IMG/VR virus record: IMGVR_UViG_3300027896_005002
Location: 59,488-123,487 of that record
Length of the DNA stretch: 64,000 nt
Direction: 5' to 3' (one strand)
Source of the DNA: a virus
Below, one piece after another: positions 1,371-30,947 of this stretch (position 1 is its first letter; each line of letters opens with the position of its first letter). The notes under the pieces are model-generated. The model searched no databases, was not told the DNA's origin, and saw only the letters and a list, made by a program, of their open reading frames with translations. The translations under genes were made by a program, and so were the position numbers.

Positions 1371-1445
1371 CCAGGTGTCGCCTAGTGGTTAGGGCACTAC
1401 ATTTGGGATGTAGATATCGTGCGTTCAACTCGCACCACCTGGACC
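1371..1445 (+). tRNA. tRNA-Pro (anticodon UGG), CCA encoded
   Basis: Cloverleaf: acceptor ccaggtg/cacctgg, anticodon arm ctaca-tttggga-tgtag, T-loop ttcaact, 3' CCA. Confidence 0.75.
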
Positions 1446-1520
1446 ATCTTAATCTTAATTTTAGTGAGGCGTATGGTTTAATAATCAGTTTATAACGTTC
1501 ATATCTAAAAAGGAGACGAT

Positions 1521-2498
1521 ATGAACTTAAAAACTGAACGAAATCTAACTATAGTTCAACTTCAACAATCAAAGATTACTTGTAACAAATGTAATAGATC
1601 AATTAGTAAAGCAAATTTTGATAAACATGTATGTTTAAGTGAAACTAATCCAAATATTAAAAGTATTAGAAATCTATATAATGATGGTTTATCATTACGA
1701 AAAATAATAAAAGAGGGTTTTAATGAACAATATGTTAAATTTGTACTTAAAGGTTGTAAAAGGTCTCCAAGTGAAGCTGGCAAGTTAGCACATAAAAAAT
1801 ATCCTGAATCTTTTAAATTATCAGAAGAAACAAAAGAAATATTAAGACAAAAACGTGTAGCTTACTTAAAACAAAATACTGGAACATCTGCATTTCAGCG
1901 ACGACAAAATGGTAAAATGAGTTATGGCGAACAAAAATTACATGATTTATTTGTTAAAAATGATATATACAAAAAATATGATGTCGTAAATGAATATTGC
2001 GAACATCCATATTTTTTAGACTTTGCTTTTGTTAATGAAAAAGTAGATGTAGAATTTGATGGACATTGGCATTTTACAGAAAAACGACAACAATTTGATA
2101 AAAAACGAGATAAATATTTACAGCAAAAAGGTTGGAGTATATATAGAATAACATATTATCAACTCGATAATTTTAATATCAATGAATTAATAAATTTTAT
2201 TGGTGATGCTAAAAACAAATATTATAAATATGATTTAGTAAAATATTATGAAATTAAAAAACAAAAGCACAAAGAAAAAAAAATTAAAAAGTTACAACAA
2301 AGAGTAATAATTAACAATAAAATTGATGCACAAAAAAATAAAAAGATACAGGATAAATTACAATTACTTTCTACAATAGATATGACAAAATTTGGTTGGG
2401 TTGAAAAAGCATCAGATTTATTAAATATAACACATACATCTGTAAGACGGTTTGTAAATAAACATTATAAAAAAGAATTTTTTAGACGAAAAAAATAA
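1521..2498 (+). CDS. homing-endonuclease-like protein: N-terminal CxxC Zn-finger + HTH repeats, C-terminal Vsr/DUF559-like PD-(D/E)XK nuclease domain
   Basis: CNKCNRS Zn finger; IRNLYNDGLSLRKI HTH-like repeat; C-term YFLDFAFVNEKVDVEFDGHWHF...DKKRDKYLQQKGWSIYRI matches the DUF559 pattern vDF...iEvDG..H...D..Rd..L...Gw.v.R. Confidence 0.6.
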   Translation: MNLKTERNLTIVQLQQSKITCNKCNRSISKANFDKHVCLSETNPNIKSIRNLYNDGLSLRKIIKEGFNEQYVKFVLKGCKRSPSEAGKLAHKKYPESFKLSEETKEILRQKRVAYLKQNTGTSAFQRRQNGKMSYGEQKLHDLFVKNDIYKKYDVVNEYCEHPYFLDFAFVNEKVDVEFDGHWHFTEKRQQFDKKRDKYLQQKGWSIYRITYYQLDNFNINELINFIGDAKNKYYKYDLVKYYEIKKQKHKEKKIKKLQQRVIINNKIDAQKNKKIQDKLQLLSTIDMTKFGWVEKASDLLNITHTSVRRFVNKHYKKEFFRRKK

Positions 2499-2503
2499 TT
2501 TAC

Positions 2504-2580
2504 GAGGGTGTCGCCTAGCGGTCTAGGGCAACGGTTTTTGAAGCCGTCATTCGGTGGTTCAAATCCATCCACCCTTGCCA
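2504..2580 (+). tRNA. tRNA-Gln (anticodon UUG), CCA encoded
   Basis: acceptor gagggtg/caccctt (G-U at 1:72), anticodon arm acggt-ttttgaa-gccgt, T-arm ggtgg-ttcaaat-ccatc, 3' gCCA. Confidence 0.65.
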
Positions 2581-2584
2581 TTAT

Positions 2585-2663
2585 CGGAGTGTAGGCTAGA
2601 CTGGTTTAGGCCACATGCTTCGGGAGCATGTTCTCAGCAGTTCAAATCTGCTCACTCCGACCA
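2585..2663 (+). tRNA. tRNA-Pro (anticodon CGG), CCA encoded
   Basis: acceptor cggagtg/cactccg, anticodon arm catgc-ttcggga-gcatg, T-loop ttcaaat, aCCA. Confidence 0.65.
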
Positions 2664-2667
2664 AATT

Positions 2668-2739
2668 TGGGGTGTAATTCAGTCGTAGAATGCATGTCTC
2701 TGAAACATGATGTCGTAGGTTCAACTCCTACCACCCCAG
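2668..2739 (+). tRNA. tRNA-Gln (anticodon CUG)
   Basis: acceptor tggggtg/cacccca, anticodon arm catgt-ctctgaa-acatg, T-arm gtagg-ttcaact-cctac. Confidence 0.65.
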
Positions 2740-2746
2740 TAAATTC

Positions 2747-2823
2747 GGGCCTGTAGCTCAGCTGTATAGAGTGCGTGTCTTCGAAACACGATGTCGTCAG
2801 TTAAAATCTGACCAGGCCCACCA
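2747..2823 (+). tRNA. tRNA-Arg (anticodon UCG), CCA encoded
   Basis: acceptor gggcctg/caggccc, D-arm gctcagctgtatagagt, anticodon arm cgtgt-cttcgaa-acacg, aCCA. Confidence 0.75.
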
Positions 2824-2836
2824 ATTAGGAGATTCC

Positions 2837-3688
2837 ATGGAAAGTATAGACAATTGTCATAATTGTACAAAATGTATTTTACTAGATAGTAAATACTGTT
2901 ATAAAGATTGTAAGACTTGTAAATCAAAATTCTTATGCTTTACATTTAGTCGAAATAATGAAATTAGTATTTGCTTCGTTGACACAGCTGATAAAAATTA
3001 TATTGGTACAAGGAATTCAATACAATTGGGTTTATTAGATGAAGCAATTTTTTCAACATCTCAAACTATAGAAAAATATCTGAAATCTATCTTATTATAT
3101 AATAATAATGACATCCGTAAAATGGGCGGAAGAAATGGCCATAATATTTTAGATTTGAAAAAAGAAGCACAAAAATGTTTAAATGGATTTGATTTAGATA
3201 TAACTTATACTGTAGGAAAAACAAAATATTCTTTTTATGAAATAATCGACAAAAATGTTGACCGTTATGGTATAATTTCAGCACCAAACTTTCCTTTTTT
3301 ATCTTTATTAGATGATGCAGTTTTTAAAATTCGTCCTTATTGTAGAGACATAGATCTTGAAGCTTTAGTTTATAAAATAGATAAATTAGAAGTTTTGGAA
3401 ATGATTCCAATTAATAAATCAATTGGAGGTTATTTAGAAGAAATCATTAAATTTAAACCGACATCGTTTAATAATAAACTTTCATTGCAAAAAAAATGTC
3501 TTTATTGGGAAAATAAACATACTTTAGCAAGTGGAACGCAAACAATTCCAAACATAAAAAAATTTGGTGAACATTTATATTGGCCAAAATGTTCAAAATG
3601 TTTAAATAATTGGCGAGAAAATCATTATAAAGTAACGCAAATTCAAAAAGAATATTTAAAAACTTTAGACTATAAAATGTGCCTATAG
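2837..3688 (+). CDS. Cys-rich hypothetical protein (possible Rx4-6H/HEPN-like motif, speculative)
   Basis: ATG at 2837 preceded by aggag RBS; the listed ORF start at 2771 would overlap tRNA-Arg; N-terminal CHNCTKC...CYKDCKTC cluster; RKMGGRNGH. Confidence 0.35.
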   Translation: MESIDNCHNCTKCILLDSKYCYKDCKTCKSKFLCFTFSRNNEISICFVDTADKNYIGTRNSIQLGLLDEAIFSTSQTIEKYLKSILLYNNNDIRKMGGRNGHNILDLKKEAQKCLNGFDLDITYTVGKTKYSFYEIIDKNVDRYGIISAPNFPFLSLLDDAVFKIRPYCRDIDLEALVYKIDKLEVLEMIPINKSIGGYLEEIIKFKPTSFNNKLSLQKKCLYWENKHTLASGTQTIPNIKKFGEHLYWPKCSKCLNNWRENHYKVTQIQKEYLKTLDYKMCL

Positions 3689-3755
3689 CTGAGTTGGATA
3701 CAGCACCAGATTGCGAATCTGGAGGTCAGTGGTTCGAATCCACTTAGGCACACCA
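3679..3755 (+). tRNA. tRNA-Arg (anticodon GCG by my fold), CCA encoded
   Basis: acceptor gtgccta/taggcac, D-arm gctgagttggatacagc, anticodon arm ccaga-ttgcgaa-tctgg, T-arm agtgg-ttcgaat-ccact, aCCA; overlaps stop of upstream CDS. Confidence 0.65.
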
Positions 3756-4334: not shown

Positions 4335-4362
4335 GTAGGTTCAAATCCTACCTGGGACACCA
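4335..4362 (+). pseudogene. tRNA 3' fragment (T-arm + acceptor 3' strand + CCA) lacking a 5' half
   Basis: gtagg-ttcaaat-cctac then ctgggac-a-CCA; no complementary gtcccag 5' acceptor found upstream. Confidence 0.35.
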
Positions 4363-4364
4363 TT

Positions 4365-5270
4365 ATGAAAAACACTGGCTTTTCTGAAATAACTACTGAA
4401 CGACTTTACTATAATAGTCAAGATCCTTGGTACATGGAAGTCGCTATTACTGGTCGTTGCAATTTTTCATGTAAATATTGCAATAGATTCAATAATGATA
4501 TTGATCTTGCAAAACTTACCTCTTTTATTCAAAATAATCAATTCAGACATATTCAAATAACAGGCGGTGAACCTACAGTTCACAATCAATTCTTTGAAAT
4601 AATGAATTTATGTAGAAGTAAAACCAAAAAACTTGGTCTTTCTACAAATGGTACTTTTGGTATTGATAATTATTTGAAAAGTCAAGCAGATATGTTTTCA
4701 GTGTCATTAGATGATTATGACATGGACATTTTGAAGAATAGAGGATATAATAGTCCAGAAAAAATAGTTGATACTATAAAACAACTCGTTAAATATAAAT
4801 ATGTTAATATTGGTCTTGTAATTGATTCATTAAATATTGATAGAATAGAATCAATAGTAGATTTTATTTTGTCACTCGGTGTTAATGATATAAAATTATC
4901 AACATCAACAAAAGACCAATTAATACCTAAGTTCAAAAAAGATTATATTAAATATCCTATTTTAAATTATCGTGTACAAAACTTTAAAGATGGTAAACAA
5001 ATGCGAGGAAATGCTTGCAAAAAATGTTATATTGCAAGCAGTGATGTTACTATAGTTGGTGACAGTCATTATCCTTGTTTGACTTATTTTAGAGAAAAAG
5101 GTACAGCAATTGGTAAAGTAAATAATGATTTGATGAAAGATCGTATTGTTTGGATGAATGAACATGATTGTAGTAAAGATGATATATGTCAAAAATATTG
5201 TATGGATTTTAAATGTGAATTCAATAGAGCAAGAACGGAGATTGTATGTCAGTCAAACAAGTCATTGTAA
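4365..5270 (+). CDS. radical SAM enzyme with C-terminal Cys-rich (SPASM/twitch-like) region
   Basis: CNFSCKYC = CX3CX2C cluster, ITGGEP glycine-rich SAM motif; C-terminal CKKCY...C...CSKDDICQKYCMDFKC. Confidence 0.6.
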   Translation: MKNTGFSEITTERLYYNSQDPWYMEVAITGRCNFSCKYCNRFNNDIDLAKLTSFIQNNQFRHIQITGGEPTVHNQFFEIMNLCRSKTKKLGLSTNGTFGIDNYLKSQADMFSVSLDDYDMDILKNRGYNSPEKIVDTIKQLVKYKYVNIGLVIDSLNIDRIESIVDFILSLGVNDIKLSTSTKDQLIPKFKKDYIKYPILNYRVQNFKDGKQMRGNACKKCYIASSDVTIVGDSHYPCLTYFREKGTAIGKVNNDLMKDRIVWMNEHDCSKDDICQKYCMDFKCEFNRARTEIVCQSNKSL

Positions 5271-5635
5271 TTCGTAAAGATTTGAATATGAGAAAAGGTA
5301 AATGCATCGTGCAAGGTGCGCACGCTTCAATGAAAATATTTTTTGATCGGTGGCATAAAGTCGATAATCAAAATACTTTTATAACAGATTTCTTACCTGA
5401 TACTATGGTTCAATGGATTGAGGGATTATTTACCAAAATTTGTGTGAGTGTAAATTCTGAAGCCGAATTACTTGAAATTTATGAAAAAGCAAAAGAAGCT
5501 AATATACCAGTAGCTTTGATTGAAGATGCAGGTTTGACCGAATTTAAGGGAATATTAACTAAGACTTGTATTGCTCTTGGACCCGACGAATCTGAAAAGA
5601 TTGATAAATTGACTGGTCACTTATCTTTGCTATGA
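5246..5635 (+). CDS. peptidyl-tRNA hydrolase, PTH2 family
   Basis: KQVIVIRKDLNMRKGKCIVQGAHAS matches the PTH2 signature (vvVvRtDLgMgkGKiaAQcaHAa); overlaps preceding CDS end. Confidence 0.6.
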   Translation: MSVKQVIVIRKDLNMRKGKCIVQGAHASMKIFFDRWHKVDNQNTFITDFLPDTMVQWIEGLFTKICVSVNSEAELLEIYEKAKEANIPVALIEDAGLTEFKGILTKTCIALGPDESEKIDKLTGHLSLL

Positions 5636-6297: not shown

Positions 6298-7017
6298 CTA
6301 AATTTCTATGATATCTTCATATAAAATAGTAAAATTATCTATAACAACATTAGCATGGAAATGTCCACAAAAATATTTTTTAAATTGAATTCTATTACAA
6401 ACTTCATCTAAAAATTTTGCAGTAGGATCTAAATATTTACTATAATCATGATCATCCATCTCAATAATGTCAACACCTGAAGCTATCATAAATTTTGCAA
6501 TCATTCCTTGCGGTAATGTATGAGCTATTATATAATCTACTTTATTTCCATGTATTTCTAAATTAGTTATTGCATAATCCATTTCTTTATAAGAAGGTAT
6601 CTCATTCCTCCAAATACTTACACCTTCAATTCGACTAGCATCATCAACACTTTTTGCACCGCCCATACAAAAAAATGTTTTACTCTCAATCGTATATATC
6701 TCACCACGCTTTAAATAAAAAATACTATCAGATACTACACCAACTTTACCACCAAATTTTTCAATAATTGGCAACTCTGCTAATCTATCATGATTTTCAT
6801 GATTACCATCAATAAAAAGTATGGTAAATGGTTTTTCATTTAACCATTTTTTCCAATAAATTTCTTCTTTATCTGGTTCGTAAAACCATAACAAACCAAA
6901 ATCACCGGTAATTATCACATAATCATTTTTAGTAAGAGATTTACCTTGAGGAAAATTTGTAGTATTTAATTTCCGAATATCTATCGGAATATGTGTGTCA
7001 CCAGTTATATAAATCAT
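6298..7017 (-). CDS. calcineurin-like metallophosphoesterase (candidate 3'-phosphatase/2',3'-cyclic phosphodiesterase)
   Basis: GDTH, GDFG, GNHEN metallophosphatase motifs in canonical order. Confidence 0.65.
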   Translation of the reverse strand: MIYITGDTHIPIDIRKLNTTNFPQGKSLTKNDYVIITGDFGLLWFYEPDKEEIYWKKWLNEKPFTILFIDGNHENHDRLAELPIIEKFGGKVGVVSDSIFYLKRGEIYTIESKTFFCMGGAKSVDDASRIEGVSIWRNEIPSYKEMDYAITNLEIHGNKVDYIIAHTLPQGMIAKFMIASGVDIIEMDDHDYSKYLDPTAKFLDEVCNRIQFKKYFCGHFHANVVIDNFTILYEDIIEI

Positions 7018-8130: not shown

Positions 8131-8151
8131 TAAAGTATATCTCTTAAATAT

Positions 8152-8230
8152 GCCCGTGATTGGAATCGAACCAACATTTTCAGCTTCCTTTACGATTATC
8201 TGTTTAGGAAACAGACTCGGCTACACGGGC
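8152..8230 (-). tRNA. noncanonical tRNA-like gene, anticodon CCU (Arg/AGG), D-arm reduced to gccgag
   Basis: acceptor gcccgtg/cacgggc, perfect anticodon arm tctgt-ttcctaa-acaga, 23-nt region taatcgtaaaggaagctgaaaat, T-arm gttgg-ttcgatt-ccaat; no D-stem partner. Confidence 0.45.
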
Positions 8231-9169: not shown

Positions 9170-9252
9170 TGGCGCCCGTGATTCGATTCGAACGAACATT
9201 TTCAGCTCCAATTACGATTAACTGCTTAGAAGGCAGTCTCGGCTACACGGGC
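9170..9252 (-). tRNA. noncanonical tRNA-like gene, anticodon UCU (Arg/AGA), D-arm reduced, CCA encoded
   Basis: acceptor gcccgtg/cacgggc-g-CCA, anticodon arm actgc-cttctaa-gcagt, then taatcgtaattggagctgaaaat, T-arm gttcg-ttcgaat-cgaat; same architecture as 8152-8230. Confidence 0.45.
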
Positions 9253-23154: not shown

Positions 23155-23235
23155 AATTATTCTTTCCAGACAAAATTATCCTCCTTTCCTAAAGATAATA
23201 TATGTCATTAAAAGAATAAATTTATGGTATGGAAT

Positions 23236-23589: not shown

Positions 23590-23591
23590 TT

Positions 23592-24443
23592 TTATTTCTC
23601 AAATTTATAATAAAAAAACCAACCATTAGCGGATTTTCGTGTACCTTTTAATACTGTTATAATATTTGATGGATAAGTATTTAATTGCTTAGCTGCTTGT
23701 TTTTTGTTCGAAAATTCTAATTTTTGACCATTTTTTACAGCAAAAAATATTTTTCTCTTAAGTTGTTCAACAAAATCATCATACATTTTTTTAGTTATAT
23801 ACTTAAAAGAAAATATCCAATTATTTTTAGATTTAACTTTTCCATGCAAAATACAACTAATAAACCTTTGACTAACCTTAGTATAAATAGATGCTTCGTA
23901 TTGTGTTTTAAATTTCTTTAATTCATTAACATTTCTTGCATAAAAAGCTTTTCCACCATGACACTTACTATGCTTAATTCTTTCTTCAATTTTATTAAAC
24001 CTTTTATTCTGAGATTTACCCTGTTTTTTTCTGGCTTTATCTGACTTAAAATAATTTATTAAACCCAAACTTAAATTTTTTCGTGCTTCTAAATTAAACT
24101 TTCCATTACTTCCGCCTTCTTTTAAATTATATCCAAAAGTTTTATTAGTACTATTAAACTTTTTAATATATTCTTTTTCTTTTTTATCAAGTTCTAATTG
24201 TGTATTGCATTTACATAATATGTCCCAAGTAAATTTATCAAAACCATATTTCATTAAAGCATTATGAAAATATGATTGATTTTTTGGCTTTTTTATTAAA
24301 CTTTTCAAACAAACTCGATGATGAGCTTTAATTCTACCTTGTAATGATCGCCATGTTTGACCAATATACACTTTATTTGTTAAAATATTTGTAGCTTTAT
24401 AAATGATACTTTGTTCATACAAGTATTCATCTAAAATATTCAT
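23592..24443 (-). CDS. GIY-YIG homing endonuclease
   Basis: IYKATNILTNKVYIGQT ... R...H ... GYNLKEGG = GIY-YIG catalytic motifs; basic C-terminal DNA-binding region. Confidence 0.65.
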   Translation of the reverse strand: MNILDEYLYEQSIIYKATNILTNKVYIGQTWRSLQGRIKAHHRVCLKSLIKKPKNQSYFHNALMKYGFDKFTWDILCKCNTQLELDKKEKEYIKKFNSTNKTFGYNLKEGGSNGKFNLEARKNLSLGLINYFKSDKARKKQGKSQNKRFNKIEERIKHSKCHGGKAFYARNVNELKKFKTQYEASIYTKVSQRFISCILHGKVKSKNNWIFSFKYITKKMYDDFVEQLKRKIFFAVKNGQKLEFSNKKQAAKQLNTYPSNIITVLKGTRKSANGWFFYYKFEK

Positions 24444-25495
24444 TTACCTGTCTTATCTAAGTATACTGGATCTCGTTGCTTTAAAAATAACCGGCCAAAA
24501 CCAACAATATATTTCTCTATCATCGGCTTTATCACTATGCCCTCTCTCAACCTATCGATTAATACACTCTTTCCATTTGAAGCAACTTGGACTGATCGGC
24601 CATCTAACCAATCTTTAAAGATCACATTACTCGCTATAATTGGTACAAATCTCTCTCTCAAACCAATCTTATCCAAGAGAACATCAATCTCTCCAAAATC
24701 AATAGCTTTACTATTGACTTCAATATCAAAAATCTTTATCGTATGCTTTTTCAAATTATAATAATTACCCTGTACTTTAGGCCCGATTATCTCACCCCGA
24801 ATCGTAATCGCACAATTCGGAAAATAATTGACCTTCAAATTACTCACTGCGTCTATCAAACCATCATTACGAGCGACCTGCCAAAAAGTATGCTCCTCAT
24901 GATCAGGCAAATTTATGATAGCATGACCGTGCGTGCACACGCTCATCTTATCATCTACATCAATGAAGACAGCAGCATTAGTGCCTTCTATTTTCTCAGA
25001 TATGAACACCCTCTCATTCATCAATTGCTCAACGATATCAGGATGTCTATCGCAGCCTTCAATATCATAATTATAAACCATCTCCGGTCGCTGTACCAAA
25101 TTACCAGTGCTCGTCATAACTTCTGGTGCTTCATACTTTGTCACACTCAAAGCAGCTGTTAGATCTACCGGTAAAACGTCCACCTTAAGATAAGCCTTAA
25201 CACTAGACGCAGATGTGACATATCCTTGAGAAATTTCATTTCTTAATTTACAAGTTTTAATTCTATTTTTATCTTTACCTGATAAAAAATTCTGAATATT
25301 TTGTTGTAATATAAATTCCTGAGGCAGTATAGAATCTATTGGAAAATAAACTACACTATCTCCAACTTTATATAAATCTTTTTGGACAACAAATTGATAT
25401 GTCATCCCTTCAACTTGACCAAGTTCCAATTTATCAGCATTTGGATGCGGATAAATTTTAGATATTTTTTTTACTTCCACAGCAAAAGTACTCAT
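24440..25495 (-). CDS. ATP-dependent RNA ligase (Rnl2/Rnl5-like nucleotidyltransferase core) fused to N-terminal Trbp111/CsaA-like tRNA-binding OB domain
   Basis: N-term VEVKKISKIYPHPNADKLELGQVE (tRNA-binding OB signature hPnADkL); motif I EKIEGTNAAVF (KxxG), motif IV REGIVIKP (EGxxxK), motif V LFLKQRD...K. Confidence 0.55.
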   Translation of the reverse strand: MSTFAVEVKKISKIYPHPNADKLELGQVEGMTYQFVVQKDLYKVGDSVVYFPIDSILPQEFILQQNIQNFLSGKDKNRIKTCKLRNEISQGYVTSASSVKAYLKVDVLPVDLTAALSVTKYEAPEVMTSTGNLVQRPEMVYNYDIEGCDRHPDIVEQLMNERVFISEKIEGTNAAVFIDVDDKMSVCTHGHAIINLPDHEEHTFWQVARNDGLIDAVSNLKVNYFPNCAITIRGEIIGPKVQGNYYNLKKHTIKIFDIEVNSKAIDFGEIDVLLDKIGLRERFVPIIASNVIFKDWLDGRSVQVASNGKSVLIDRLREGIVIKPMIEKYIVGFGRLFLKQRDPVYLDKTGK

Positions 25496-25525
25496 TTTAA
25501 TCCCTTCCCTAATGTCATTAACTAA

Positions 25526-27031
25526 TCATAGTTGTGTAACAAGTTGTTTAGAAATAATTTTTTTAATCATACGTCTAGTAATTTTATATTTTTTAATTAA
25601 TACTCCAATCTTAAAACCATTTTGATAATCATTAATTATATCATTGATTCTGAATGAAACATTTCTATCACACCATCTCTTTTTAATAAAATATCCACTA
25701 TTTTTTATACTAATATTATTATCTAAAAACAATTGTTTAACCTTTTTATTCAACACATTATATTTTCTACAAATTTTACTTAATGAATTATTATTTTTAT
25801 AATCATCAATTATTTGTTTTGCAAGATCACTTGTTATTATAGTTTTTATTTTGTAAAATCGTTTTATAGTATACTTTGTATTGTACTTAATAAATCTTTT
25901 TACTTGTGTTTGTGATACATTCCATAATTTTGCAAGTATAGCAAATGTTCCACGTTTATTAATATCAACTTTTTCAAGATCATTTAATCTATTTTGACGT
26001 AATTCATTTCTTATTTTTATAATTTTACTTATTTTTTCATTTTTTCTTTTAGTAATCTCTGCTAGATTATTAAGCGCTACCAACTGTTTATCAGTATATT
26101 GTGAAATTAAAACATCTCTTTTTTCAGATGATTTAAGAATAGATTTTATTTCTTGAAACTTATCTTTTGAATTATAACAAATTGCTCGCCAACAAATTCT
26201 AAATACCGTAATATTATTTAATTTAAGCAATGCATCTTTCTTTTTATCAATTTCCTGACGTCGCTTATATCTATAATGTTGTTGACCGTCAATTTCAATA
26301 GCTAATGATAATTTAGGAAAGAAAAAATCTACTCTATAAACAGAAAAAGGAAATTCAGTATAAAAATCATCATTAAGTTTATATCCTTCATTAATTAAAA
26401 ATTTAAAAAAAGTTTTCTCAGCATATGACTGATTGTCTTGTTTATACCAAGAATTAGCTCTATTTTCAGCATGCATTATTTTACATTTTTCAGACCACTT
26501 TTTTCTTGATTCATCTGACCACTTAAAAGTATATTTTTTATGAGCTAATTTCGATGCATCTGCGACAGATCGTCTATAACATTTTAATGCAAAATGTATG
26601 AGACCTGTATCAAAACCTTGATTATGTAATTCACGCGATGATAATCCAGAATCATATAGATTACGAATTTTTATAACATCATTATCTTCATAACATTTAT
26701 GTCGTTTATAATTACCACTATTAAATGATCTATTACATTTTTTACAAATAATTTTTTTATCACTAAAACTATTTATTGCTTTTTTCCTATATATTTTAGT
26801 ATGTGCAATTTTTAATGTATCACTAGCAGTTCTTTTCAAATCTTTTATACATCTATTTATTTGATTTCGTGTATAACCTATTTGAATTATATCTTTTATT
26901 AATAATCCAGAATTATACAAATCTCTAATTTTCTGTCTATCGTTCTCAGATATCTTACAATATTTCTTATGTGAAAAAAAACTTCCAGGATTCGTAAAAA
27001 AATTACCGCAATTCTCGCAACATAATTTCAT
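25526..27031 (-). CDS. homing-endonuclease-like protein: Zn finger, multiple HTH (NUMOD-like) repeats, DUF559/Vsr-like nuclease domain
   Basis: CENCGNFF, IRDLYNSGLLIKDI / IRNLYDSGLSSREL repeats; YRVDFFFPKLSLAIEIDGQQHY...DKKKDALLKLNNITVFRI. Confidence 0.6.
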   Translation of the reverse strand: MKLCCENCGNFFTNPGSFFSHKKYCKISENDRQKIRDLYNSGLLIKDIIQIGYTRNQINRCIKDLKRTASDTLKIAHTKIYRKKAINSFSDKKIICKKCNRSFNSGNYKRHKCYEDNDVIKIRNLYDSGLSSRELHNQGFDTGLIHFALKCYRRSVADASKLAHKKYTFKWSDESRKKWSEKCKIMHAENRANSWYKQDNQSYAEKTFFKFLINEGYKLNDDFYTEFPFSVYRVDFFFPKLSLAIEIDGQQHYRYKRRQEIDKKKDALLKLNNITVFRICWRAICYNSKDKFQEIKSILKSSEKRDVLISQYTDKQLVALNNLAEITKRKNEKISKIIKIRNELRQNRLNDLEKVDINKRGTFAILAKLWNVSQTQVKRFIKYNTKYTIKRFYKIKTIITSDLAKQIIDDYKNNNSLSKICRKYNVLNKKVKQLFLDNNISIKNSGYFIKKRWCDRNVSFRINDIINDYQNGFKIGVLIKKYKITRRMIKKIISKQLVTQL

Positions 27032-27215
27032 TATATTCTCCTTTTAGAATATAATAAATTATAAACAAAGAATTAATTCCAATTACATTACAACCGCTAT
27101 TCAAATGTAATAAGCAGACGGACAATATTAACAATTAAATAGTGATGTAAAAAAGTAATTAACCATAGGTCAAAAATTACTAATATATTTAGTTAAATCT
27201 TCAAAACTATAAAAT

Positions 27216-27302
27216 GGGCCGGGAAGGATTTGAACCTCCAGTGTTTAGCACATATGGCACTTGATCTACAGTCAAGCGGTTTCACCATTCACCCACCGAC
27301 CC
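27216..27302 (-). tRNA. tRNA-Tyr (anticodon GUA), class II
   Basis: acceptor gggtcgg/ccggccc, anticodon arm cttga-ctgtaga-tcaag, long variable arm tgccatatgtgctaaacact, T-arm ggagg-ttcaaat-ccttc. Confidence 0.7.
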
Positions 27303-27307
27303 TTAAT

Positions 27308-27568
27308 TCATTTTCTTATTACTTTCCATACCGGTGTTGGCTCATAACTTACCAGCTCACCATTACGCCAATAATATCGTGGATGAGGATCATAGAGAAA
27401 TTTAAAATCGCAAATGTTATAAGGATCATTGAATTTTCGATAAGCATTCCCATTCGGGACATCTTCAATTCTCCGAATAACTTTCGAATAATTTTTCTTC
27501 CAAAATTTTCTTTTACCAGCATTCTTATAACCATCTGTGAACCACGGCGCGCGATACGATCTGGACAT
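27308..27568 (-). CDS. hypothetical protein
   Basis: ORF track. Confidence 0.2.
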   Translation of the reverse strand: MSRSYRAPWFTDGYKNAGKRKFWKKNYSKVIRRIEDVPNGNAYRKFNDPYNICDFKFLYDPHPRYYWRNGELVSYEPTPVWKVIRK

Positions 27569-27634
27569 ACATTGCTCCTTGTAAAGGTGTTACAACATAT
27601 GTTCCTCCTTTGTTAATTATTTAATGTCTTTGGT

Positions 27635-27707
27635 GTGGGTGGTCGGACTTGAACCGGCAGCGTCTGACTTGGAAGGACAGCATTCTAGCCAATTGAATTA
27701 CACCCAC
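27635..27707 (-). tRNA. tRNA-Gly (anticodon UCC), slightly imperfect stems
   Basis: acceptor gtgggtg/cacccac, D-arm attc-aattggcta-gaat, anticodon arm ctgtc-cttccaa-gtcag (one U-U), T-loop ttcaagt. Confidence 0.55.
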
Positions 27708-27728
27708 GAATTTATCATCAATTTATAT

Positions 27729-27803
27729 TGGTAGCCCATAGCGGAATCGGACCGCTGAATCCTCATAGAAAGTGAGGTGTCTTAACCACTTGACGAATGG
27801 GCC
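27729..27803 (-). tRNA. tRNA-Glu (anticodon UUC), CCA encoded
   Basis: acceptor ggcccat/atgggct, anticodon arm cctca-ctttcta-tgagg, T-loop ttcgatt, aCCA. Confidence 0.65.
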
Positions 27804-27812
27804 GTGATAATC

Positions 27813-27890
27813 AGGAGCGAAGAGACTCGAACTCTCATTTTCAACCAAATTACAAGTATATGGTTTTGGAGACCACACTGTTACGCTCCT
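27813..27890 (-). tRNA. tRNA-like gene with good acceptor/T-arm but irregular anticodon region (undetermined)
   Basis: acceptor aggagcg/cgctcct, T-arm gagag-ttcgagt-ctctt; middle ccaaaaccatatacttgtaatttgg has no clean 5-bp/7-nt anticodon arm. Confidence 0.35.
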
Positions 27891-27899
27891 ACAAAATTT

Positions 27900-27971
27900 A
27901 GCGGGCAAGAGAATCGAACTCTCATTCGTGTGGTTATGAGCCACATCGAGGCACCACGCCTCGCCACCCGC
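27900..27971 (-). tRNA. tRNA-Met/Ile2-like (anticodon CAU) with imperfect acceptor/T pairing
   Basis: D-arm gagg-cgtggtg-cctc, anticodon arm tgtgg-ctcataa-ccaca, T-loop ttcgatt; acceptor gcgggtg vs tgcccgc needs two G-U. Confidence 0.45.
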
Positions 27972-27978
27972 GATAAAT

Positions 27979-28188
27979 TTATATAGTAGATCCATATGCT
28001 AAAACATCCATAAATTTCTGTCTGACTGCAATTTCAAAATCAGTCATTAACTGCTTATTTTCGTAAAAACATATTCGCAAACATGTTTTGATATTTTCTG
28101 GACAATCTGAAAAATATTCATGCACAAATTCATCAACTGTCAACGGTTCTGATATTTTATCAATTATTGTTTCAACAAATTTGTCCAT
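27979..28188 (-). CDS. hypothetical protein
   Basis: ORF track. Confidence 0.2.
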   Translation of the reverse strand: MDKFVETIIDKISEPLTVDEFVHEYFSDCPENIKTCLRICFYENKQLMTDFEIAVRQKFMDVLAYGSTI

Positions 28189-28275
28189 TTAAAACAACTC
28201 CTAACTTCCTGAAAATAAACTTGAATCATAATACTCTTAACTCTTCTACAATAATCTAATTGACTATTTAACTAT

Positions 28276-28701
28276 ATGAAACATTCTCCTCATCATTTAC
28301 TACAAGAAAGACTTTACAAAAGACCTTGGCGTCTACTAATCGGCTGCATCATGCTAAACCTCACCACAAGATCTCAAGTTGATAAAGTAATCTACAAGTT
28401 CTTCAAATTATGTCCTAAACCACAAGATGCCATCAAAATTCCTAAAAGACGATTAATAAGACTATTAAAACCTCTCGGCCTCGTCAATAGACGAGTTAAC
28501 ACCATTAAAAACTTCTCAAAAGACTTTATCGAAAAAAGTTGGACATATCCAATAGAACTTTACGGTATTGGAAAATATGCCAATGATAGTTATTTGCTTT
28601 TCTGTGCAGATGTGTGGAAGAATGTCCGACCGACAGATAAAGCATTAAAACTTTATATTAAATGGCGGAGGAGACAGGAGTTGAACCTGCATGTCTGTTA
28701 A
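28276..28701 (+). CDS. HhH-GPD DNA glycosylase, MBD4 glycosylase-domain-like
   Basis: RPWRLLIGCIMLNLTT...LLKPLGL...YPIELYGIGKYANDSYLLFC closely parallels the MBD4 catalytic domain (DPWKLLIATIFLNRTS...LLKPLGLY...[20 protein letters not shown]); 3' end overlaps tRNA-Ser. Confidence 0.5.
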   Translation: MKHSPHHLLQERLYKRPWRLLIGCIMLNLTTRSQVDKVIYKFFKLCPKPQDAIKIPKRRLIRLLKPLGLVNRRVNTIKNFSKDFIEKSWTYPIELYGIGKYANDSYLLFCADVWKNVRPTDKALKLYIKWRRRQELNLHVC

Positions 28702-28748
28702 GACGATGGTTTTCGAAACCATTGCTCTAGCCATTAAGCGACTCCTCC
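28663..28748 (-). tRNA. tRNA-Ser (anticodon CGA), class II, CCA encoded
   Basis: acceptor ggaggag/ctcctcc-g-CCA, anticodon arm atggt-ttcgaaa-accat, long variable arm gtcttaacagac, T-loop ttcaact. Confidence 0.7.
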
Positions 28749-28755
28749 GAAAAAA

Positions 28756-28831
28756 TGGCGGAGCGTACGGGAATTGAACCCGTTTCCACGGTTTGACAAA
28801 CCGTAATTCTAAGCCATTAAACTAACGCTCC
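28756..28831 (-). tRNA. tRNA-Asp (anticodon GUC), CCA encoded
   Basis: acceptor ggagcgt/acgctcc-g-CCA, anticodon arm acggt-ttgtcaa-accgt, T-arm acggg-ttcaatt-cccgt. Confidence 0.75.
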
Positions 28832-28837
28832 ATATAA

Positions 28838-28924
28838 TGGCGGAGGGTGAGGGACTTGAACCCCCAGGTCCTTTCGGATCCGCTTTTCAAGAGCGACACG
28901 CTACCAATTACGCTCTAACCCTCC
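28838..28924 (-). tRNA. tRNA-Ser (anticodon UGA), class II, CCA encoded
   Basis: acceptor ggagggt/accctcc-g-CCA, anticodon arm tcgct-cttgaaa-agcgg, variable arm tcc-gaaa-gga, T-arm ggggg-ttcaagt-ccctc. Confidence 0.7.
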
Positions 28925-28929
28925 ATAAT

Positions 28930-30045
28930 TTAATTATATTCTCTTATAAAACAATTCTCATTATAAAAATTCAACATATACTTTTTCATCCATTTACTTA
29001 CTTTTTGATGTTTTATTCCTATCAATTCTGCTACTTTAGAAACCCAACCGAATTTAGAAAAACTAATTTTAGATTGTAAAATAGCATTAATTTTACTTTC
29101 AATATTTATTTGTTTTATTAATTTTTTATTTTCTCGTTTTAATTTTCTTTGATTGATTCGTTGATTTTGTTTTTTTACTTTCTGATTCATAATATTTTTA
29201 ATGCCAACAGTATATTCATATTCAAACACTTTTCCATTTTTATTAAATTCCTTTATTTTAGTCAATAAAGATTTTATATCAAATCCTCGTCTATTTAAAT
29301 ATTTTTTAATTTCTTTTATTGTTGTTCTAGTAACTAATCTAATTATATAACCATTTGATCTAAATGCTTGTAATTGATTATTACACTCGTCTGTCAATTG
29401 TCCTTTTACTTCATAAATTTTTCCATTTATTTCAAAATCATTTCTATATGTACGATCATTATATTGAACGGTTATATTCTCATAATTAAAATTAATATTC
29501 TTCTTTGCTAAAAATAATGCAAAAATAAACTCGTATGAACTTCTTAAAAAAAACTTTTTATTATTATAATAAAAATAGCATCTTTTAAATTTATTTGATA
29601 TTGGCGGCTGTCTTTTACCTTCTTTATATAATCTTTTTAATGTTTCAGAAAGCTTTAAATTCGCTGCTTTATTTTTCTTATCATCTTGTCGCCAATTTAA
29701 TAATGGATTATCTGTATTAGAATTGTACGAGTTCCATCTATCCTTCATTCTTATTTTCATAGTTTCAGCCATCTTCATAATTGAAGGATGTGTTTCTTTT
29801 GTTAACCCTTTTAACCACGGTTTACTATGATCAAATCTATCACCGGGTCTAACATCTATGCCCTGTTGTTTTAATCTACAATAATAAACATGACCACCAA
29901 CTTGTGATCCTTTTTCAAATTGTCTTCCACAAATTTCACAACTGAACATAAAATCCTCCTTTTTAATAGGAAGATTTATAAACAGAATAGAAATTCGCAT
30001 GTCTACCAAATATAATAAATTGCGCGCGATGAGATTCGAACTCAT
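28930..30045 (-). CDS. homing-endonuclease-like protein (C2H2-type Zn finger + putative PD-(D/E)XK nuclease domain)
   Basis: CEICGRQFEKGSQVGGHVYYC Zn finger; NDRTYRNDFEINGKIYEVKGQ resembles D...E.K nuclease core; sits between tRNA clusters like the other HE genes. Confidence 0.4.
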   Translation of the reverse strand: MSSNLIARNLLYLVDMRISILFINLPIKKEDFMFSCEICGRQFEKGSQVGGHVYYCRLKQQGIDVRPGDRFDHSKPWLKGLTKETHPSIMKMAETMKIRMKDRWNSYNSNTDNPLLNWRQDDKKNKAANLKLSETLKRLYKEGKRQPPISNKFKRCYFYYNNKKFFLRSSYEFIFALFLAKKNINFNYENITVQYNDRTYRNDFEINGKIYEVKGQLTDECNNQLQAFRSNGYIIRLVTRTTIKEIKKYLNRRGFDIKSLLTKIKEFNKNGKVFEYEYTVGIKNIMNQKVKKQNQRINQRKLKRENKKLIKQINIESKINAILQSKISFSKFGWVSKVAELIGIKHQKVSKWMKKYMLNFYNENCFIREYN

Positions 30046-30094
30046 ACCTGCTGATTTCTAAGACCAGTGCATCTACCAATTGTGCAACGCGCGC
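30021..30094 (-). tRNA. class I (short variable arm) tRNA with Leu anticodon UAG
   Basis: acceptor gcgcgcg/cgcgcgc, anticodon arm ctggt-cttagaa-atcag, 5-nt variable caggt, T-arm atgag-ttcgaat-ctcat. Confidence 0.55.
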
Positions 30095-30105
30095 ATAAAA
30101 TTAAA

Positions 30106-30180
30106 TGGGAATGATAGGATTCGAACCTACAAACATCTAAATTTTGAATTTAGCGACTCTACCAATTGGTCTACATTCCC
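30106..30180 (-). tRNA. class I tRNA with Leu anticodon CAA
   Basis: acceptor gggaatg/cattccc, D-arm gac-caattggtaga-gtc, anticodon arm ctaaa-ttcaaaa-tttag, short variable, T-arm gtagg-ttcgaat-cctat. Confidence 0.55.
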
Positions 30181-30307
30181 AAAAATTGTCTTTATTGAAT
30201 GTTCTTAATAACTTCATGTCGTAATTGGATTTTAACCAATGTCTTTAGACAAAATGTGCTGACTTATTGCACCATACGACATTGCCGATAATTTCAAAGA
30301 ACAACTT

Positions 30308-30385
30308 ACTTAATTTGGGGTGACGGAAGGGATTTGAACCCTCGATCTTCAGAGTCACGATCTGACGCCTTAGACCAGACTGGGC
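30308..30385 (-). tRNA. tRNA-His-like (anticodon GUG), atypical long D-loop and C33
   Basis: acceptor ggtggcg/cgtcacc, anticodon arm tcaga-tcgtgac-tctga, T-arm gaggg-ttcaaat-ccctt. Confidence 0.4.
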
Positions 30386-30401
30386 TACCGCCACCATAAC
30401 T

Positions 30402-30767
30402 TTATGCTATTACAAGTTTTCTTTCGGGCCATAATACTTTTTGTGTTTGTTTTTTCTGTTGGCCCCATTTAATTCTTAACTCAGATTCTATGTCAATAAC
30501 ATCGACTATTTTTCCGTCTTTTAGATATTTTCGAAGACCTCCAGTTCTTGGAGGAAGTTTTTGGATGTTTTCTATTAGTGTTAAGTCAACTTTTATTCTA
30601 CTAATATCAGTTTTGATATCCAAACTGTCAATTATTTCACCATTTTTCAATTCAATAATTTCATCGTTTGGTTGCCAGAAATCCGTTTCCTCATTAGGAT
30701 CATCTCTTCGTAAATAAAACCCATTTGGCATCAATTTCAATTCATCGTATGAATATTGTTTGAACAT
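30402..30767 (-). CDS. hypothetical protein
   Basis: ORF track. Confidence 0.2.
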   Translation of the reverse strand: MFKQYSYDELKLMPNGFYLRRDDPNEETDFWQPNDEIIELKNGEIIDSLDIKTDISRIKVDLTLIENIQKLPPRTGGLRKYLKDGKIVDVIDIESELRIKWGQQKKQTQKVLWPERKLVIA

Positions 30768-30786
30768 GATGTCCTCCTTATTTATA

Positions 30787-30859
30787 TGGGCTCGACTGGA
30801 TTTGAACCAGTAATCTTCCGCTTAAGAGGCGGTAGCTTTAACCATTAAGCTACGAACCC
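30787..30859 (-). tRNA. tRNA-Lys (anticodon CUU)
   Basis: acceptor gggttcg/cgagccc, D-arm agcttaatggttaaagct, anticodon arm (a)ccgc-ctcttaa-gcgg(a), T-arm ctggt-tcaaatc-cag. Confidence 0.6.
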
Positions 30860-30875
30860 TTGTTTTTAAAATTTA

Positions 30876-30947
30876 TGGGTCCGACCGGATTCGGACCGAT
30901 ACAGATAGATTAAAAATCTACTATGCTACCAGTTAACATCACGGACC
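30876..30947 (-). tRNA. tRNA-Lys (anticodon UUU)
   Basis: acceptor gggtccg/cggaccc, anticodon arm gtaga-tttttaa-tctat (G-U closing), T-arm atcgg-tccgaat-ccggt. Confidence 0.5.

Follow-up and report, generated by a model that had tools for sequence, protein, structure and literature searches.

Homing endonucleases, an intron-bearing tmRNA gene, and non-canonical tRNA-like genes in the tRNA island of a huge phage

The island and its genes

The 64,000-nt stretch of viral DNA analyzed in this work (positions 59,488 to 123,487 of the IMG/VR record IMGVR_UViG_3300027896_005002; hereafter, the window) contains, between positions 1371 and 30947, an island of tRNA genes interspersed with genes for free-standing homing endonucleases, a transfer-messenger RNA (tmRNA) gene that carries a group I intron, four non-canonical tRNA-like genes, and a set of genes for translation and RNA repair (Table 1). 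Because a protein identical to the product of the open reading frame (ORF) 9338-10129 is encoded on a 416,029-bp contig, the window comes from a huge phage, and the region is the translation and RNA-repair island of that phage (contig of ~416 kb). A megablast comparison of 25 kb of the window with 50,697 GenBank phage records returned no match, i.e., no close cultured relative.

ARAGORN identifies 24 canonical tRNA genes, 6 on the plus strand (1371-3755) and 18 on the minus strand (12885-30948). Sixteen amino acids are represented, Pro, Gln, Arg, Ser, and Lys by two isoacceptors each, Met by two genes, and Leu by four. Rfam agrees on these tRNAs and adds weak tRNA matches at 8151, 21777, and 27812. 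With the four non-canonical genes and the tmRNA, the number of tRNA-type genes comes to 29, which agrees with a preliminary description of the window that had listed about 29 tRNA or tRNA-like genes for at least 15 amino acids, with doublets for Pro, Gln, Arg, Ser, Lys, and Met. The eight endonuclease ORFs named there are all present, except that the gene caller gives 28930-29949 in place of 28930-30045. They had been said to occupy gaps between tRNA genes, which is supported in the main; two of them, however, flank an RNA ligase gene, and 55872-56645 lies outside the island.

Table 1. Features of the window, with the evidence for each
Position	Strand	Feature	Evidence
1371-3755	+	tRNA array Pro(tgg), Gln(ttg), Pro(cgg), Gln(ctg), Arg(tcg), Arg(gcg)	ARAGORN, Rfam
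1521-2498	+	DUF559/EDxHD-type endonuclease: zinc finger, helix-turn-helix (HTH), Vsr-like nuclease, C-terminal HTH	Pfam DUF559, E 4e-8
2837-3688	+	Cys-rich ORF between tRNA-Arg(tcg) and tRNA-Arg(gcg), overlapping the latter by 10 nt	ORF list
4335-4362	+	Orphan tRNA 3' fragment (T arm, acceptor 3' strand, ACCA) without 5' half	Sequence inspection, ARAGORN with introns
5246-5635		Peptidyl-tRNA hydrolase PTH2	Pfam
6298-7017		Metallophos phosphoesterase	Pfam
8151-8230	-	Non-canonical tRNA-like gene, anticodon CCU (Arg), nested long-range "D" helix	Rfam tRNA, 38.5 bits; R1, 89.6 bits (in training set)
8234-9142	-	302-residue ORF between the two non-canonical Arg tRNA-like genes	ORF list; phrog_8571, unknown function
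9173-9252	-	Non-canonical tRNA-like gene, anticodon UCU (Arg), CCA encoded	R1, 95.7 bits (in training set)
9338-10129	+	tmRNA-associated free-standing EDxHD-type endonuclease, converging on the tmRNA gene	Profile, fold
10104-10117	-	tmRNA 3' exon: last T-loop nucleotide, T-stem 3' strand, acceptor 3' strand with U70, discriminator; CCA not encoded
10118-10353	-	Group I intron, 236 nt, without internal ORF, between T-loop nucleotides 6 and 7
10354-10744	-	tmRNA 5' exon: acceptor GGGGGUG with G3, tag ORF ANKIGSVFGAQFALQFAAMCAKAPAMAA*, pseudoknot region, T arm 5' half
10954-11508		RNase T	Pfam
12885-30948	-	Arrays of 18 canonical tRNAs amid endonuclease and RNA-repair genes	ARAGORN, Rfam
12906-13949	-	DUF559/EDxHD-type paralog between tRNA-Ile(gat) and tRNA-Val(tac)	Pfam DUF559, E 3.5e-6
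16482-17066	-	HNH endonuclease between tRNA-Met(cat) and tRNA-Thr(tgt)	PHROG HNH, E 1.4e-13; Pfam HNH, 20.3 bits (cutoff 21.4)
18602-19057		AAA_33/KTI12-type kinase	Pfam
21777-21857	-	Non-canonical tRNA-like gene, anticodon UAU (Ile)	R1, 50.0 bits (outside training set)
23236-23589		cREC_REC, cyclic-phosphate-processing receiver domain	Pfam
23592-24443	-	GIY-YIG homing endonuclease, NUMOD-like C terminus	Pfam GIY-YIG, E 1.4e-8; PHROG "homing endonuclease," E 5e-26
24440-25495	-	RNA ligase, OB and ligase domains	Pfam
25526-27031	-	DUF559/EDxHD-type paralog, 501 residues, duplicated N-terminal zinc-finger/HTH module, extra C-terminal HTHs
27812-27890	-	Non-canonical tRNA-like gene, anticodon CCA (Trp)	R1, 56.6 bits (outside training set)
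28930-29949	-	339-residue ORF: N-terminal zinc finger, putative PD-(D/E)XK-like core, C-terminal HTH
55872-56645	-	HNH endonuclease, 25 kb outside the island	Pfam HNH, E 2.8e-10; PHROGs

DUF559-type endonucleases in the tRNA arrays

Three ORFs, 1521-2498, 12906-13949, and 25526-27031, exceed the Pfam gathering score for DUF559, which belongs to the Vsr-like clan, and are mutually paralogous (BLASTP E values of 1e-18 to 1e-31). They have in common an N-terminal CxxC...H...C finger, an HTH with the motif IRxLYxxGLS, a nuclease core, and a C-terminal HTH. E137, D167, E178-x-D/N-G181, H184, and a downstream Asp are conserved in their alignment, and the set of E137, D167, D/N180, H184, and the downstream Asp matches the composite EDxHD active site. 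On the strength of the Pfam match and of a profile link to the I-Bth0305I-like group, the paralogs can be assigned to the published EDxHD family, whose nuclease domain they share and whose prototype is I-Bth0305I (PMC3239194). Thus, for these three proteins the preliminary description was right about the Vsr-like domain, the zinc-finger and HTH modules, and the paralogy; its suggestion that the family may be uncharacterized goes too far, given the EDxHD nuclease domain and the existence of annotated homologs (see below). The family is small, with 29 proteins at E of ≤1e-5 among 5.8 billion.

As had been noticed, several endonuclease genes abut or overlap tRNA ends. Thus, 1521-2498, located between tRNA-Pro(tgg) and tRNA-Gln(ttg), stops 5 nt short of the latter, the 3' end of 12906-13949 overlaps tRNA-Val by 53 nt, and 28930-29949, located between tRNA-Leu(tag) and tRNA-Ser(tga), stops 5 nt short of tRNA-Ser.

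We used ARAGORN to locate the tRNAs on the contigs that encode the closer DUF559 homologs (these and other related contigs are cited below by their L numbers). The conserved Pro(tgg)-Gln(ttg)-Pro(cgg)-Gln(ctg)-Arg cluster recurs on such contigs, and the plus-strand cluster of the window is kept in L001, L014, L015, L018, and L019; the island content is nevertheless not identical, the counterpart of 1521-2498 being found in any of four gaps or missing. It fills the Pro-tgg/Gln-ttg gap in the window and L015, follows Gln-ttg in L019, and separates Pro-cgg from Gln-ctg in L001 and Gln-ctg from Arg-gcg in L018; in L018 and L014, the Pro-tgg/Gln-ttg gap has no endonuclease gene and measures only 3 to 7 nt. 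These shifting and empty positions within a conserved tRNA cluster support the mobility of the DUF559-type genes. Of the two observations that, by the preliminary description, would have refuted its reading, a loss of the catalytic residues and an unchanging content of related genomes, neither was made. More distant homologs in cultured phages, such as Leptolyngbya phage Lbo-JY46 and Rhizobium phage RHph_TM61, are found inside tRNA clusters and are annotated as "homing endonuclease protein." One of the contigs, L001 (GCA_030650065.1, JAUSEY010000060.1; 50.8 kb), is labeled as a Nitrosarchaeum metagenome-assembled genome; its phage-type genes, tRNA array, homing endonucleases, and intron-form tmRNA mark it almost certainly as a contig of phage origin that was misbinned.

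Endonuclease genes in a tRNA island are an already known phenomenon of the SegB type, of which the window is a rich but ordinary example. SegB of phage T4, a GIY-YIG enzyme encoded in the T4 tRNA cluster, recognizes a T-stem-loop motif and drives the inheritance of the tRNA region (PMC2330249), dragging flanking tRNA genes along; it also amplifies a tRNA-Tyr segment in T4/T6, which allows escape from Septu (PMC13096335). Like segB, the genes described here are free-standing, lie between tRNA genes, and are optional among related phages (PMC2330249; PMC13096335). Unlike SegB, their products are mainly of the DUF559/EDxHD type with zinc-finger and HTH modules, several families coexist, and their activities are predicted ones. 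With I-Bth0305I the EDxHD-type proteins of the island share a Vsr-like fold, a five-residue E/D/N/H/D active site, and an N-terminal DNA-binding region (PMC3239194; PDB 3r3p). However, the gene for I-Bth0305I lies within a group I intron of recA, and the enzyme has N-terminal motifs of the NUMOD type, whereas the island proteins are free-standing, differ in their N-terminal modules, and go together with tRNA or tmRNA genes. The I-Bth0305I family occurs in phages inside introns and inteins as well as in free-standing form (PMC3239194).

By extension of established homing biology, as for T4 SegB, each enzyme would, in a co-infection, cut the conserved RNA-gene or neighbor-gene DNA of a relative that lacks it, and recombinational repair from the endonuclease-bearing genome would then copy the endonuclease gene with its flanks into the cut genome.

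A tmRNA gene split by a group I intron

The neighbor of 9338-10129 is a tmRNA gene rather than a tRNA gene and bears an intron, both of which had escaped the preliminary description. This gene (10104-10744, minus strand) is interrupted in its T loop by a 236-nt group I intron; Rfam detects tmRNA (RF00023, 80 bits) at 10352-10737 and an abutting group I intron (RF00028, 91 bits) at 10126-10367, both on the minus strand. The 5' exon ends in CGGGG UUCAAU at position 10354, and the 3' exon reads U CCCCG CACCUCC A. Once joined, they form a T loop of 7 nt (UUCAAUU), a T stem of 5 bp, and the tRNA-Ala-like acceptor stem GGGGGUG/CACCUCC with G3:U70. The insertion site is UUCAAU^U, exactly where the gap falls in the alignment with the intron-less tmRNA gene of L011, and this T-loop subsite 7 is the classical and commonest intron site in bacterial intron-form tmRNAs (PMC11915505).

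The structure of the intron and its junctions is borne out by covariation. In P1, the exon sequence UCAAU pairs with intron GUUGA, with a U-G wobble at the splice site; relatives show a compensatory change in P1, with UCGAU in the exon opposite GUCGC. The last nucleotide of the intron is G. Across the intron, both the T stem (CGGGG/CCCCG, AGGGG/CCCCU, GAGGG/CCCUC) and the acceptor stem (GGGGGUG/CACCUCC versus GGGGAUG/CAUCUCC) covary. RNAalifold predicts 73 pairs for eight intron homologs, 28 of which show double compensatory changes, and the full RF00028 model scores 91 to 104 bits in the window and its relatives, in keeping with a conserved catalytic core that comprises helices P1 to P9. The intron is predicted to be self-splicing. 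Its removal in silico turns the ARAGORN verdict from "0 genes" into a tmRNA, in the window as well as in five homologous loci. Phage tmRNAs were reported in a survey of huge phages that relied on ARAGORN and says nothing of introns (PMC7162821); because ARAGORN finds no gene unless the intron is taken out, the intron form would have been missed there. A promoter and terminator scan around the tmRNA gene was uninformative.

Bacterial intron-form tmRNAs likewise have a group I intron at T-loop subsite 7 (UUCRAU^U), with U at position -1 and a terminal G (PMC11915505; bioRxiv 10.1101/2020.01.27.920355), and the spliced product is a standard tmRNA in the bacterial cases and here. Among the described cases, which are bacterial, 23 of 844 have an endonuclease gene, of the LAGLIDADG type and inside the intron, whereas here the hosts are huge phages, the intron has no ORF, and its partner is an external, mostly antisense gene of the EDxHD type.

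Some features of the phage tmRNAs and introns are worth recording. The tags are long (25 to 30 residues) and end in AMAA, VAVA, LQAA, or IVA instead of the usual ALAA. CCA is not encoded in 6 of the 7 tmRNA genes with a convergent endonuclease gene, the seventh being that of L164, and is encoded in two of the three with a co-oriented one (L011 and L168). In L012 (~100-420, minus strand; IMGVR_UViG_3300028299_000003), a related intron (nhmmer, 126 bits) sits in the anticodon loop of a phage tRNA that reads by eye as tRNA-Asn(GUU), CUGU^...G^UAA; given this kinship, the lineage of the tmRNA intron also occurs in phage tRNA genes. The viral tmRNA gene of L062 (~1500-2140, minus strand; IMGVR_UViG_3300027754_000207) has a divergent group I intron, apparently after T-loop nucleotide 7 (subsite 8), which has so far been reported only from Saprospiraceae.

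The tmRNA-associated endonuclease family

The gene 9338-10129 converges on the tmRNA gene and overlaps it in antisense with its final 26 nt, 14 nt of them opposite the 3' exon and 12 nt opposite the 3' end of the intron. In homologs, the exon-overlapping tail is read in another frame and hence is not a conserved part of the protein. The protein has no match in Pfam, PHROGs, or GenBank phages and no zinc-finger or HTH repeats. A HMMER scan of 1.84 billion representative sequences yielded 8 close family members and ~57 remote relatives, the latter matching over the C-terminal ~100 residues; some of them carry PvuRts1I-like, DUF559, or MTES_1575 domains. E145, D176, E188, G191, H194, and D211 are invariant across 47 sequences, and N190 is nearly so in the close family. 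Of these, E145, D176, N190, H194, and D211 correspond to the EDxHD residues E170, D196, N208, H213, and D222 of I-Bth0305I (PMC3239194). The profile of the family and its remote relatives has its best PDB match in 3r3p, the catalytic domain of I-Bth0305I (E of 9.7e-4), and hhalign links the family to the DUF559 paralogs of the window with 96.8% probability. The AlphaFold model (predicted local distance difference test [pLDDT] score, 88.7) also has 3r3p as its top Foldseek match (probability of 0.98 to 0.99; TM score of 0.58 to 0.71 on the target). Neither a direct BLASTP comparison with the DUF559 paralogs nor a phmmer search of PDB revealed anything, so the link to EDxHD/DUF559 comes from profiles and the predicted fold. 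Accordingly, 9338-10129 represents a separate EDxHD-type subfamily with a helical N-terminal domain, and its earlier grouping with the zinc-finger- and HTH-containing proteins holds at the level of the fold only.

Searches of 185,579 bacterial and archaeal species, each represented by one genome, and of the 50,697 GenBank phage records yielded no member of the family. Related loci were sought with an alignment trimmed to the nuclease domain, and in all 10 contexts that could be determined the family member adjoins a tmRNA gene (in L169, the ORF runs off the contig edge). It is convergent on an intron-bearing tmRNA gene in the window, L001 (=L002), L003, L007 (=L006), L009 (=L008), L010, and L164, and co-oriented with an intron-less one, 2 to 20 nt after its 3' end, in L011, L165, and L168. 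Orientation and intron presence are thus perfectly correlated (7/7 convergent versus 0/3 co-oriented), and the combination of an ORF-less intron and an adjacent free-standing endonuclease gene is present in 7 distinct genomes. A distant relative of this endonuclease (36% identity over 91 residues) in L023 (=L067; ~30-1000) converges on a tRNA directly after a divergent tmRNA with a degenerate T loop.

Related contigs display the locus in several states: empty, endonuclease only, intron only, both, and with a truncated endonuclease gene. The 329.8-kb IMG/VR contig L013 resembles L003 and has the tmRNA and the intron without the ~850 nt that hold the endonuclease gene. L014, which also has no endonuclease gene, is 93% identical to L007 over the tmRNA and intron, and L007 itself retains only a 136-residue remnant of the nuclease domain. 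L083 matches L011 and has neither intron nor endonuclease gene. The genes that flank the tmRNA/endonuclease module differ between genomes.

Proposed homing of the tmRNA intron and its neighbor

On this evidence, the 9338-10129 family is a family of tmRNA-specialized free-standing homing endonucleases, which would act by cleaving DNA, most likely the T-arm and 3'-end DNA of tmRNA alleles. Two precedents are relevant. In collaborative homing, exemplified by F-CphI/psbA of cyanophage S-PM2, an intron in the target site protects its carrier and is mobilized by a neighboring enzyme (PMC6083498). In trans homing, the I-TevIII intron of T4 is mobilized by the neighboring free-standing mobE (PMC2790892). 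The systems share with the tmRNA locus an ORF-less or defunct group I intron beside a free-standing endonuclease gene, and in them the intron can protect the host gene or be mobilized in trans. In contrast to them, the host gene here is a tmRNA gene instead of a protein gene, the endonuclease belongs to another family, and natural intermediates of every state exist. In view of the correlation between orientation and intron and of the 14-nt spacing between intron and endonuclease gene, the tmRNA locus fits collaborative homing and, equally well, trans homing, to which an intron-form tmRNA gene paired with a dedicated endonuclease family adds a new variation. Under the former, the intron would split the target and render its carrier immune; under the latter, the intron would be co-converted, being within the repair tract. 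In either case, the intron, the 14-nt exon, and the endonuclease gene would spread as one unit and later decay. The notion of the intron as an immunity device is weakened by L011, L165, and L168, which carry the endonuclease gene without the intron, and we consider its chances about evenly balanced.

Intron and endonuclease might instead be functionally independent, the enzyme cutting just 3' of the tmRNA gene and the intron being a passenger, co-converted or already present, that confers no immunity. The family evidently persists without the intron, since L011, L165, and L168 encode endonucleases after intron-less tmRNA genes; intron-only alleles exist in L013 and L014; and trans homing by a neighboring free-standing enzyme is documented for mobE/I-TevIII (PMC2790892). 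The perfect correlation of orientation with intron presence, the distance of only 14 nt from intron to endonuclease gene, and the precedent of SegB, which recognizes a T-stem-loop motif of tRNA genes (PMC2330249), all argue against independence, which we therefore regard as unlikely, albeit the most serious of the alternatives considered. A further conceivable reading is that the endonuclease attacks the ssrA gene of the host while the intron shields the phage copy; the data speak neither for nor against it.

Another view of the Vsr-like and DUF559 proteins takes them for RAP-like factors that process or bind tRNA and tmRNA transcripts, as opposed to DNA homing enzymes. In its favor, 1521-2498 and several homologs show weak RAP matches in Pfam, the genes are always located beside RNA genes, and Vsr-like RAP/FASTK proteins act on RNA (PMC11879112). 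Such factors would hardly be expected to come and go and to change positions among relatives, to carry zinc-finger and HTH DNA-binding modules, or to exist as a truncated copy (L007), and the closest structure is that of a proven DNA homing endonuclease; hence, we find this view very improbable.

Non-canonical tRNA-like genes

The most surprising element of the island is a class of tRNA-like genes, four of which are found in the window (8151-8230, 9173-9252, 21777-21857, and 27812-27890). None of the four forms a local D stem-loop, and ARAGORN calls none of them; 9173-9252 is missed by default ARAGORN and has no Rfam match at E of ≤0.01. In 21777-21857 and 27812-27890, Infernal aligns 4 nt in place of the 15-nt D arm and ~22 nt inserted after a normal anticodon arm. 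The layout of 8151-8230 is the same, and its acceptor stem is identical to that of 9173-9252.

A first search motif for these odd tRNAs, ATAATCGTAA..., gave only chance matches in coding sequence and was abandoned. A motif derived from these elements, GTAA N1-3 GG N1-4 TGAAAATG NNN GTTCRA, matches on more than 119 IMG/VR contigs, which is a lower bound, and yields at least 127 unique full-length elements of 76 to 82 nt, including 9173-9252. Among the 127 matches listed, the anticodons are TCT (66), ACG (20), GAT (14), TCG (12), CCT (7), TAT (3), GCG (2), CCA (1), CTT (1), and TGT (1), so that the class is overwhelmingly Arg, followed by Ile; CCA is encoded in about half of these matches. In the modal design, a 7-bp acceptor stem is followed by U8 and A9, with nt 9-14 forming a continuous 5' strand, then by one unpaired nucleotide, a standard anticodon arm, UAA, 3 nt that pair back to 12-14, an 8-nt bulge UAAnUGGA, 3 nt that pair to 9-11, GAAAAU, and the T arm and acceptor 3' strand.

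This design was checked for covariation in 53 ungapped 80-nt members, in which some columns are fixed by the search motif and cannot covary. Paired cells make up 96.2%, versus 63.6% in shuffled alignments and 38 to 44% when the partners are slid. The acceptor, anticodon, and T arms are paired in 94 to 99% of cells, the anticodon loop has 7 nt with U33, and the long-range helices covary as strongly as the classical arms. Thus, pair 10-48 is GC in 30 members, AU in 20, UA in 2, and CG in 1; pair 11-47 is CG in 35, UA in 10, and AU in 3; and pair 13-37 is GC in 40, AU in 6, and CG in 5. Pairing is weaker at 14-36, where 19 cells are unpaired. The helix that nt 9-14 form with 36-38 and 47-49 would stack on the anticodon stem as a D stem does, and the GG-containing bulge would correspond to the D loop.

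The class covariance model, R1, separates members from ordinary tRNAs, which score 21 to 31 bits and, like the following sequences, are outside its training set. It assigns 92 bits to an element of Pseudomonas phage PA11 (L289 1195-1274; ~47,672-47,751 of NC_007808.1) and 84 bits to one of Vibrio phage D419 (L290 1194-1273). Two sequences in L012, 1210-1286 (39.0 bits) and 1331-1407 (37.7 bits), also score above ordinary tRNAs and are not called by ARAGORN, and L012 449-521, a tRNA-Arg(gcg) for ARAGORN, reaches 34.1 bits. The PA11 element directly follows an HNH endonuclease gene, and that of D419 lies inside a tRNA cluster; ARAGORN calls neither. By BLAST, 303 phage records in GenBank contain the class, 286 of them from Vibrio, 12 from Pseudomonas, 3 from Microbacterium, and 2 from uncultured phages, and among the 25 records listed, no tRNA is annotated at the position of the match.

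None of the 24 canonical tRNAs supplies the CCU, UCU, UAU, and CCA anticodons of the four window elements, which argues that these are functional. They are best read as functional decoders whose core is rearranged, for Arg (UCU and CCU), Ile (UAU), and Trp (CCA), for which aminoacylation and use in translation are predicted. The preliminary description had seen in "imperfect tRNAs" at 27813-27971 the scars of endonuclease-driven turnover. The first of these, 27812-27890, belongs to the covarying class, and the second, 27898-27973, is a tRNA-Met that ARAGORN accepts as valid. More generally, decay into pseudogenes or endonuclease scars might account for the low scores of the four genes in standard tools (31 to 39 bits in Rfam; default ARAGORN misses them) and for their location near endonuclease or unknown ORFs. 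It is scarcely credible for a design that is common to at least 127 unique members and has 96% of its cells paired, numerous compensatory changes in each helix, the long-range one among them, intact anticodon loops with U33 and a purine at 37, CCA encoded in about half of the members, anticodons that duplicate no canonical tRNA of the window, and representatives in cultured phages.

In the literature, which we covered incompletely, we found no description of a phage tRNA class without the D hairpin, and such an absence is no evidence in itself; the class is likely, but not proven, to be new. A review of non-canonical tRNAs makes no mention of phages or viruses (PMC7609411), and a 2024 paper describes all known bacterial tRNAs as canonical cloverleaves (PMC11551756). 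Like D-armless mitochondrial tRNAs, tRNA-Sec, and allo-tRNAs, the phage elements depart from the cloverleaf while keeping the acceptor, T, and anticodon arms (PMC7609411); unlike those, they have a D stem rebuilt from nt 9-14 and the variable-region side, with a GG-containing bulge and the anticodon arm nested inside.

A tRNA 3' fragment at 4335-4362 does exist as described earlier, without a 5' half, and may reasonably be read as a scar. ARAGORN run with introns joined it to a 5' half across a 178-nt intron, a call that was not reproduced on the isolated region; no GTCCCAG partner strand for the fragment is present upstream, and the remaining intron-containing tRNA calls of the permissive run were taken as noise. 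Several tRNAs are unusual in other ways. The tRNA-Thr at 16256-16339 (minus strand; 84 nt) and two Pro tRNAs of 82 to 90 nt in L001 (17783-17864 and 17957-18046), which are of class I isotypes and otherwise canonical, have unusually long variable regions. ARAGORN also reports tRNAs with four-base anticodons (cttg and ctta, in 8-nt anticodon loops) at L003 4865-4938 and L010 5896-5969, adjoining tRNA-Lys or tRNA-Pro.

Other endonucleases and RNA-repair genes

The GIY-YIG enzyme (23592-24443) and both HNH enzymes were correctly recognized before, by the evidence of Pfam and/or PHROGs. In the former, an I-HmuI NUMOD-like domain scores just below the cutoff (26.0 versus 27.0 bits; E of 6.8e-6). 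Its gene is directly 3' of the RNA ligase gene, with a 4-nt overlap, so that, with 25526-27031, endonuclease genes stand on both sides of the ligase gene. In L019 (1007-2996), a free-standing GIY-YIG gene splits the homologous ligase into OB-domain and ligase-domain ORFs; no group I intron was found around it. This split suggests that the GIY-YIG enzyme of the window may target the ligase gene, which is intact there. A search of IMG/VR with the RNA ligase found no related loci.

The product of 28930-29949, described earlier as a C2H2 and PD-(D/E)XK-like protein, shares with the DUF559 paralogs only its C-terminal HTH. E140, D171, and E180-x-K182 are invariant in its alignment, which consists of 4 sequences only (three real homologs). 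The predicted model (pLDDT of 66) has weak Foldseek matches of the PD-(D/E)XK type (3r3p, with a probability of 0.72, XisH, MspJI, and 3hrl), and the protein matches phrog_29037, "endonuclease," with an E value of 2.7e-4. A PD-(D/E)XK-like nuclease is thus plausible but not established. The Cys-rich ORF 2837-3688 has only a weak HEPN match in Pfam and no convincing PHROG match, which leaves an endonuclease identity unsupported, and 8234-9142 has no match in Pfam.

The genes of the island that do not encode endonucleases form a translation and RNA-repair set, with two radical-SAM proteins in addition to those listed in Table 1, and the interleaved repair genes suggest a tRNA-repair counter-defense module. 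Such genes (RNA ligase, AAA_33/KTI12-type kinase, Metallophos, cREC_REC, and PTH2), along with the SegB-mediated amplification of the tRNA-Tyr segment that leads to escape from Septu (PMC13096335), could be cited for the idea that the endonucleases are kept mainly for the benefit of the phage, through recombination, tRNA or anti-defense amplification, or exclusion of co-infecting relatives. There is no amplification in the window, however, and the truncated gene of L007 and the clean absences in L013, L014, and L083 resemble the decay of selfish elements, which makes this idea improbable as the main cause.

Outside the island, ~8 minus-strand ORFs (31306-38617, 51384-52076, and 61093-61569) have near-identical N-terminal 40 to 50 residues (44 to 70% identity) and diverge downstream. 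They have no Pfam or PHROG match and may constitute a family with a common anchoring or targeting module.

Interpretation and significance

Taken together, these observations are probably best explained by repeated colonization of the island by free-standing homing endonucleases, with the tmRNA gene as a sub-case, alongside four tRNA-like genes that serve as decoders. Several points weigh against this explanation. Cleavage, splicing, and aminoacylation are predictions; the N-terminal DNA-binding region of 9338-10129 matches no known module; and the nuclease assignment of 28930-29949 comes from a motif and weak fold matches. The cases of adjacency to tmRNA, seven convergent and three co-oriented, lack phylogenetic independence. 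The genomes that supply pairs of endonuclease-plus and endonuclease-minus alleles are only 74 to 93% identical, so that gain and loss are indistinguishable and no recent conversion tract is visible. Finally, the co-oriented endonuclease genes stand beside intact intron-less tmRNA genes, where a T-loop target would need some other kind of immunity.

A more far-reaching version, whose chances we put somewhat below even, holds that phages widely encode structurally distinct functional tRNAs, mostly for Arg and Ile and here also for Trp, in which a long-range helix replaces the D hairpin and which standard finders miss, and that the tmRNA, intron, and endonuclease form a true collaborative-homing unit that documents the assembly of a mobile intron.

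As for the wider meaning of these findings, huge phages carry intron-form tmRNA genes that are invisible to ARAGORN-based surveys, together with a small endonuclease family specialized on tmRNA genes, every stage of which is already in public data. This allele series makes the assembly of an ORF-less intron and a free-standing endonuclease into one mobile unit directly testable, on a non-coding RNA gene. If the tRNA-like genes are functional, they would represent a natural alternative solution to the tRNA core in the bacterial world, and phage tRNA repertoires would be systematically under-counted, especially for the rare codons AGA, AGG, and AUA. The presence of the class in cultured phages (PA11 and ~286 Vibrio phage records) makes experiments immediately possible.

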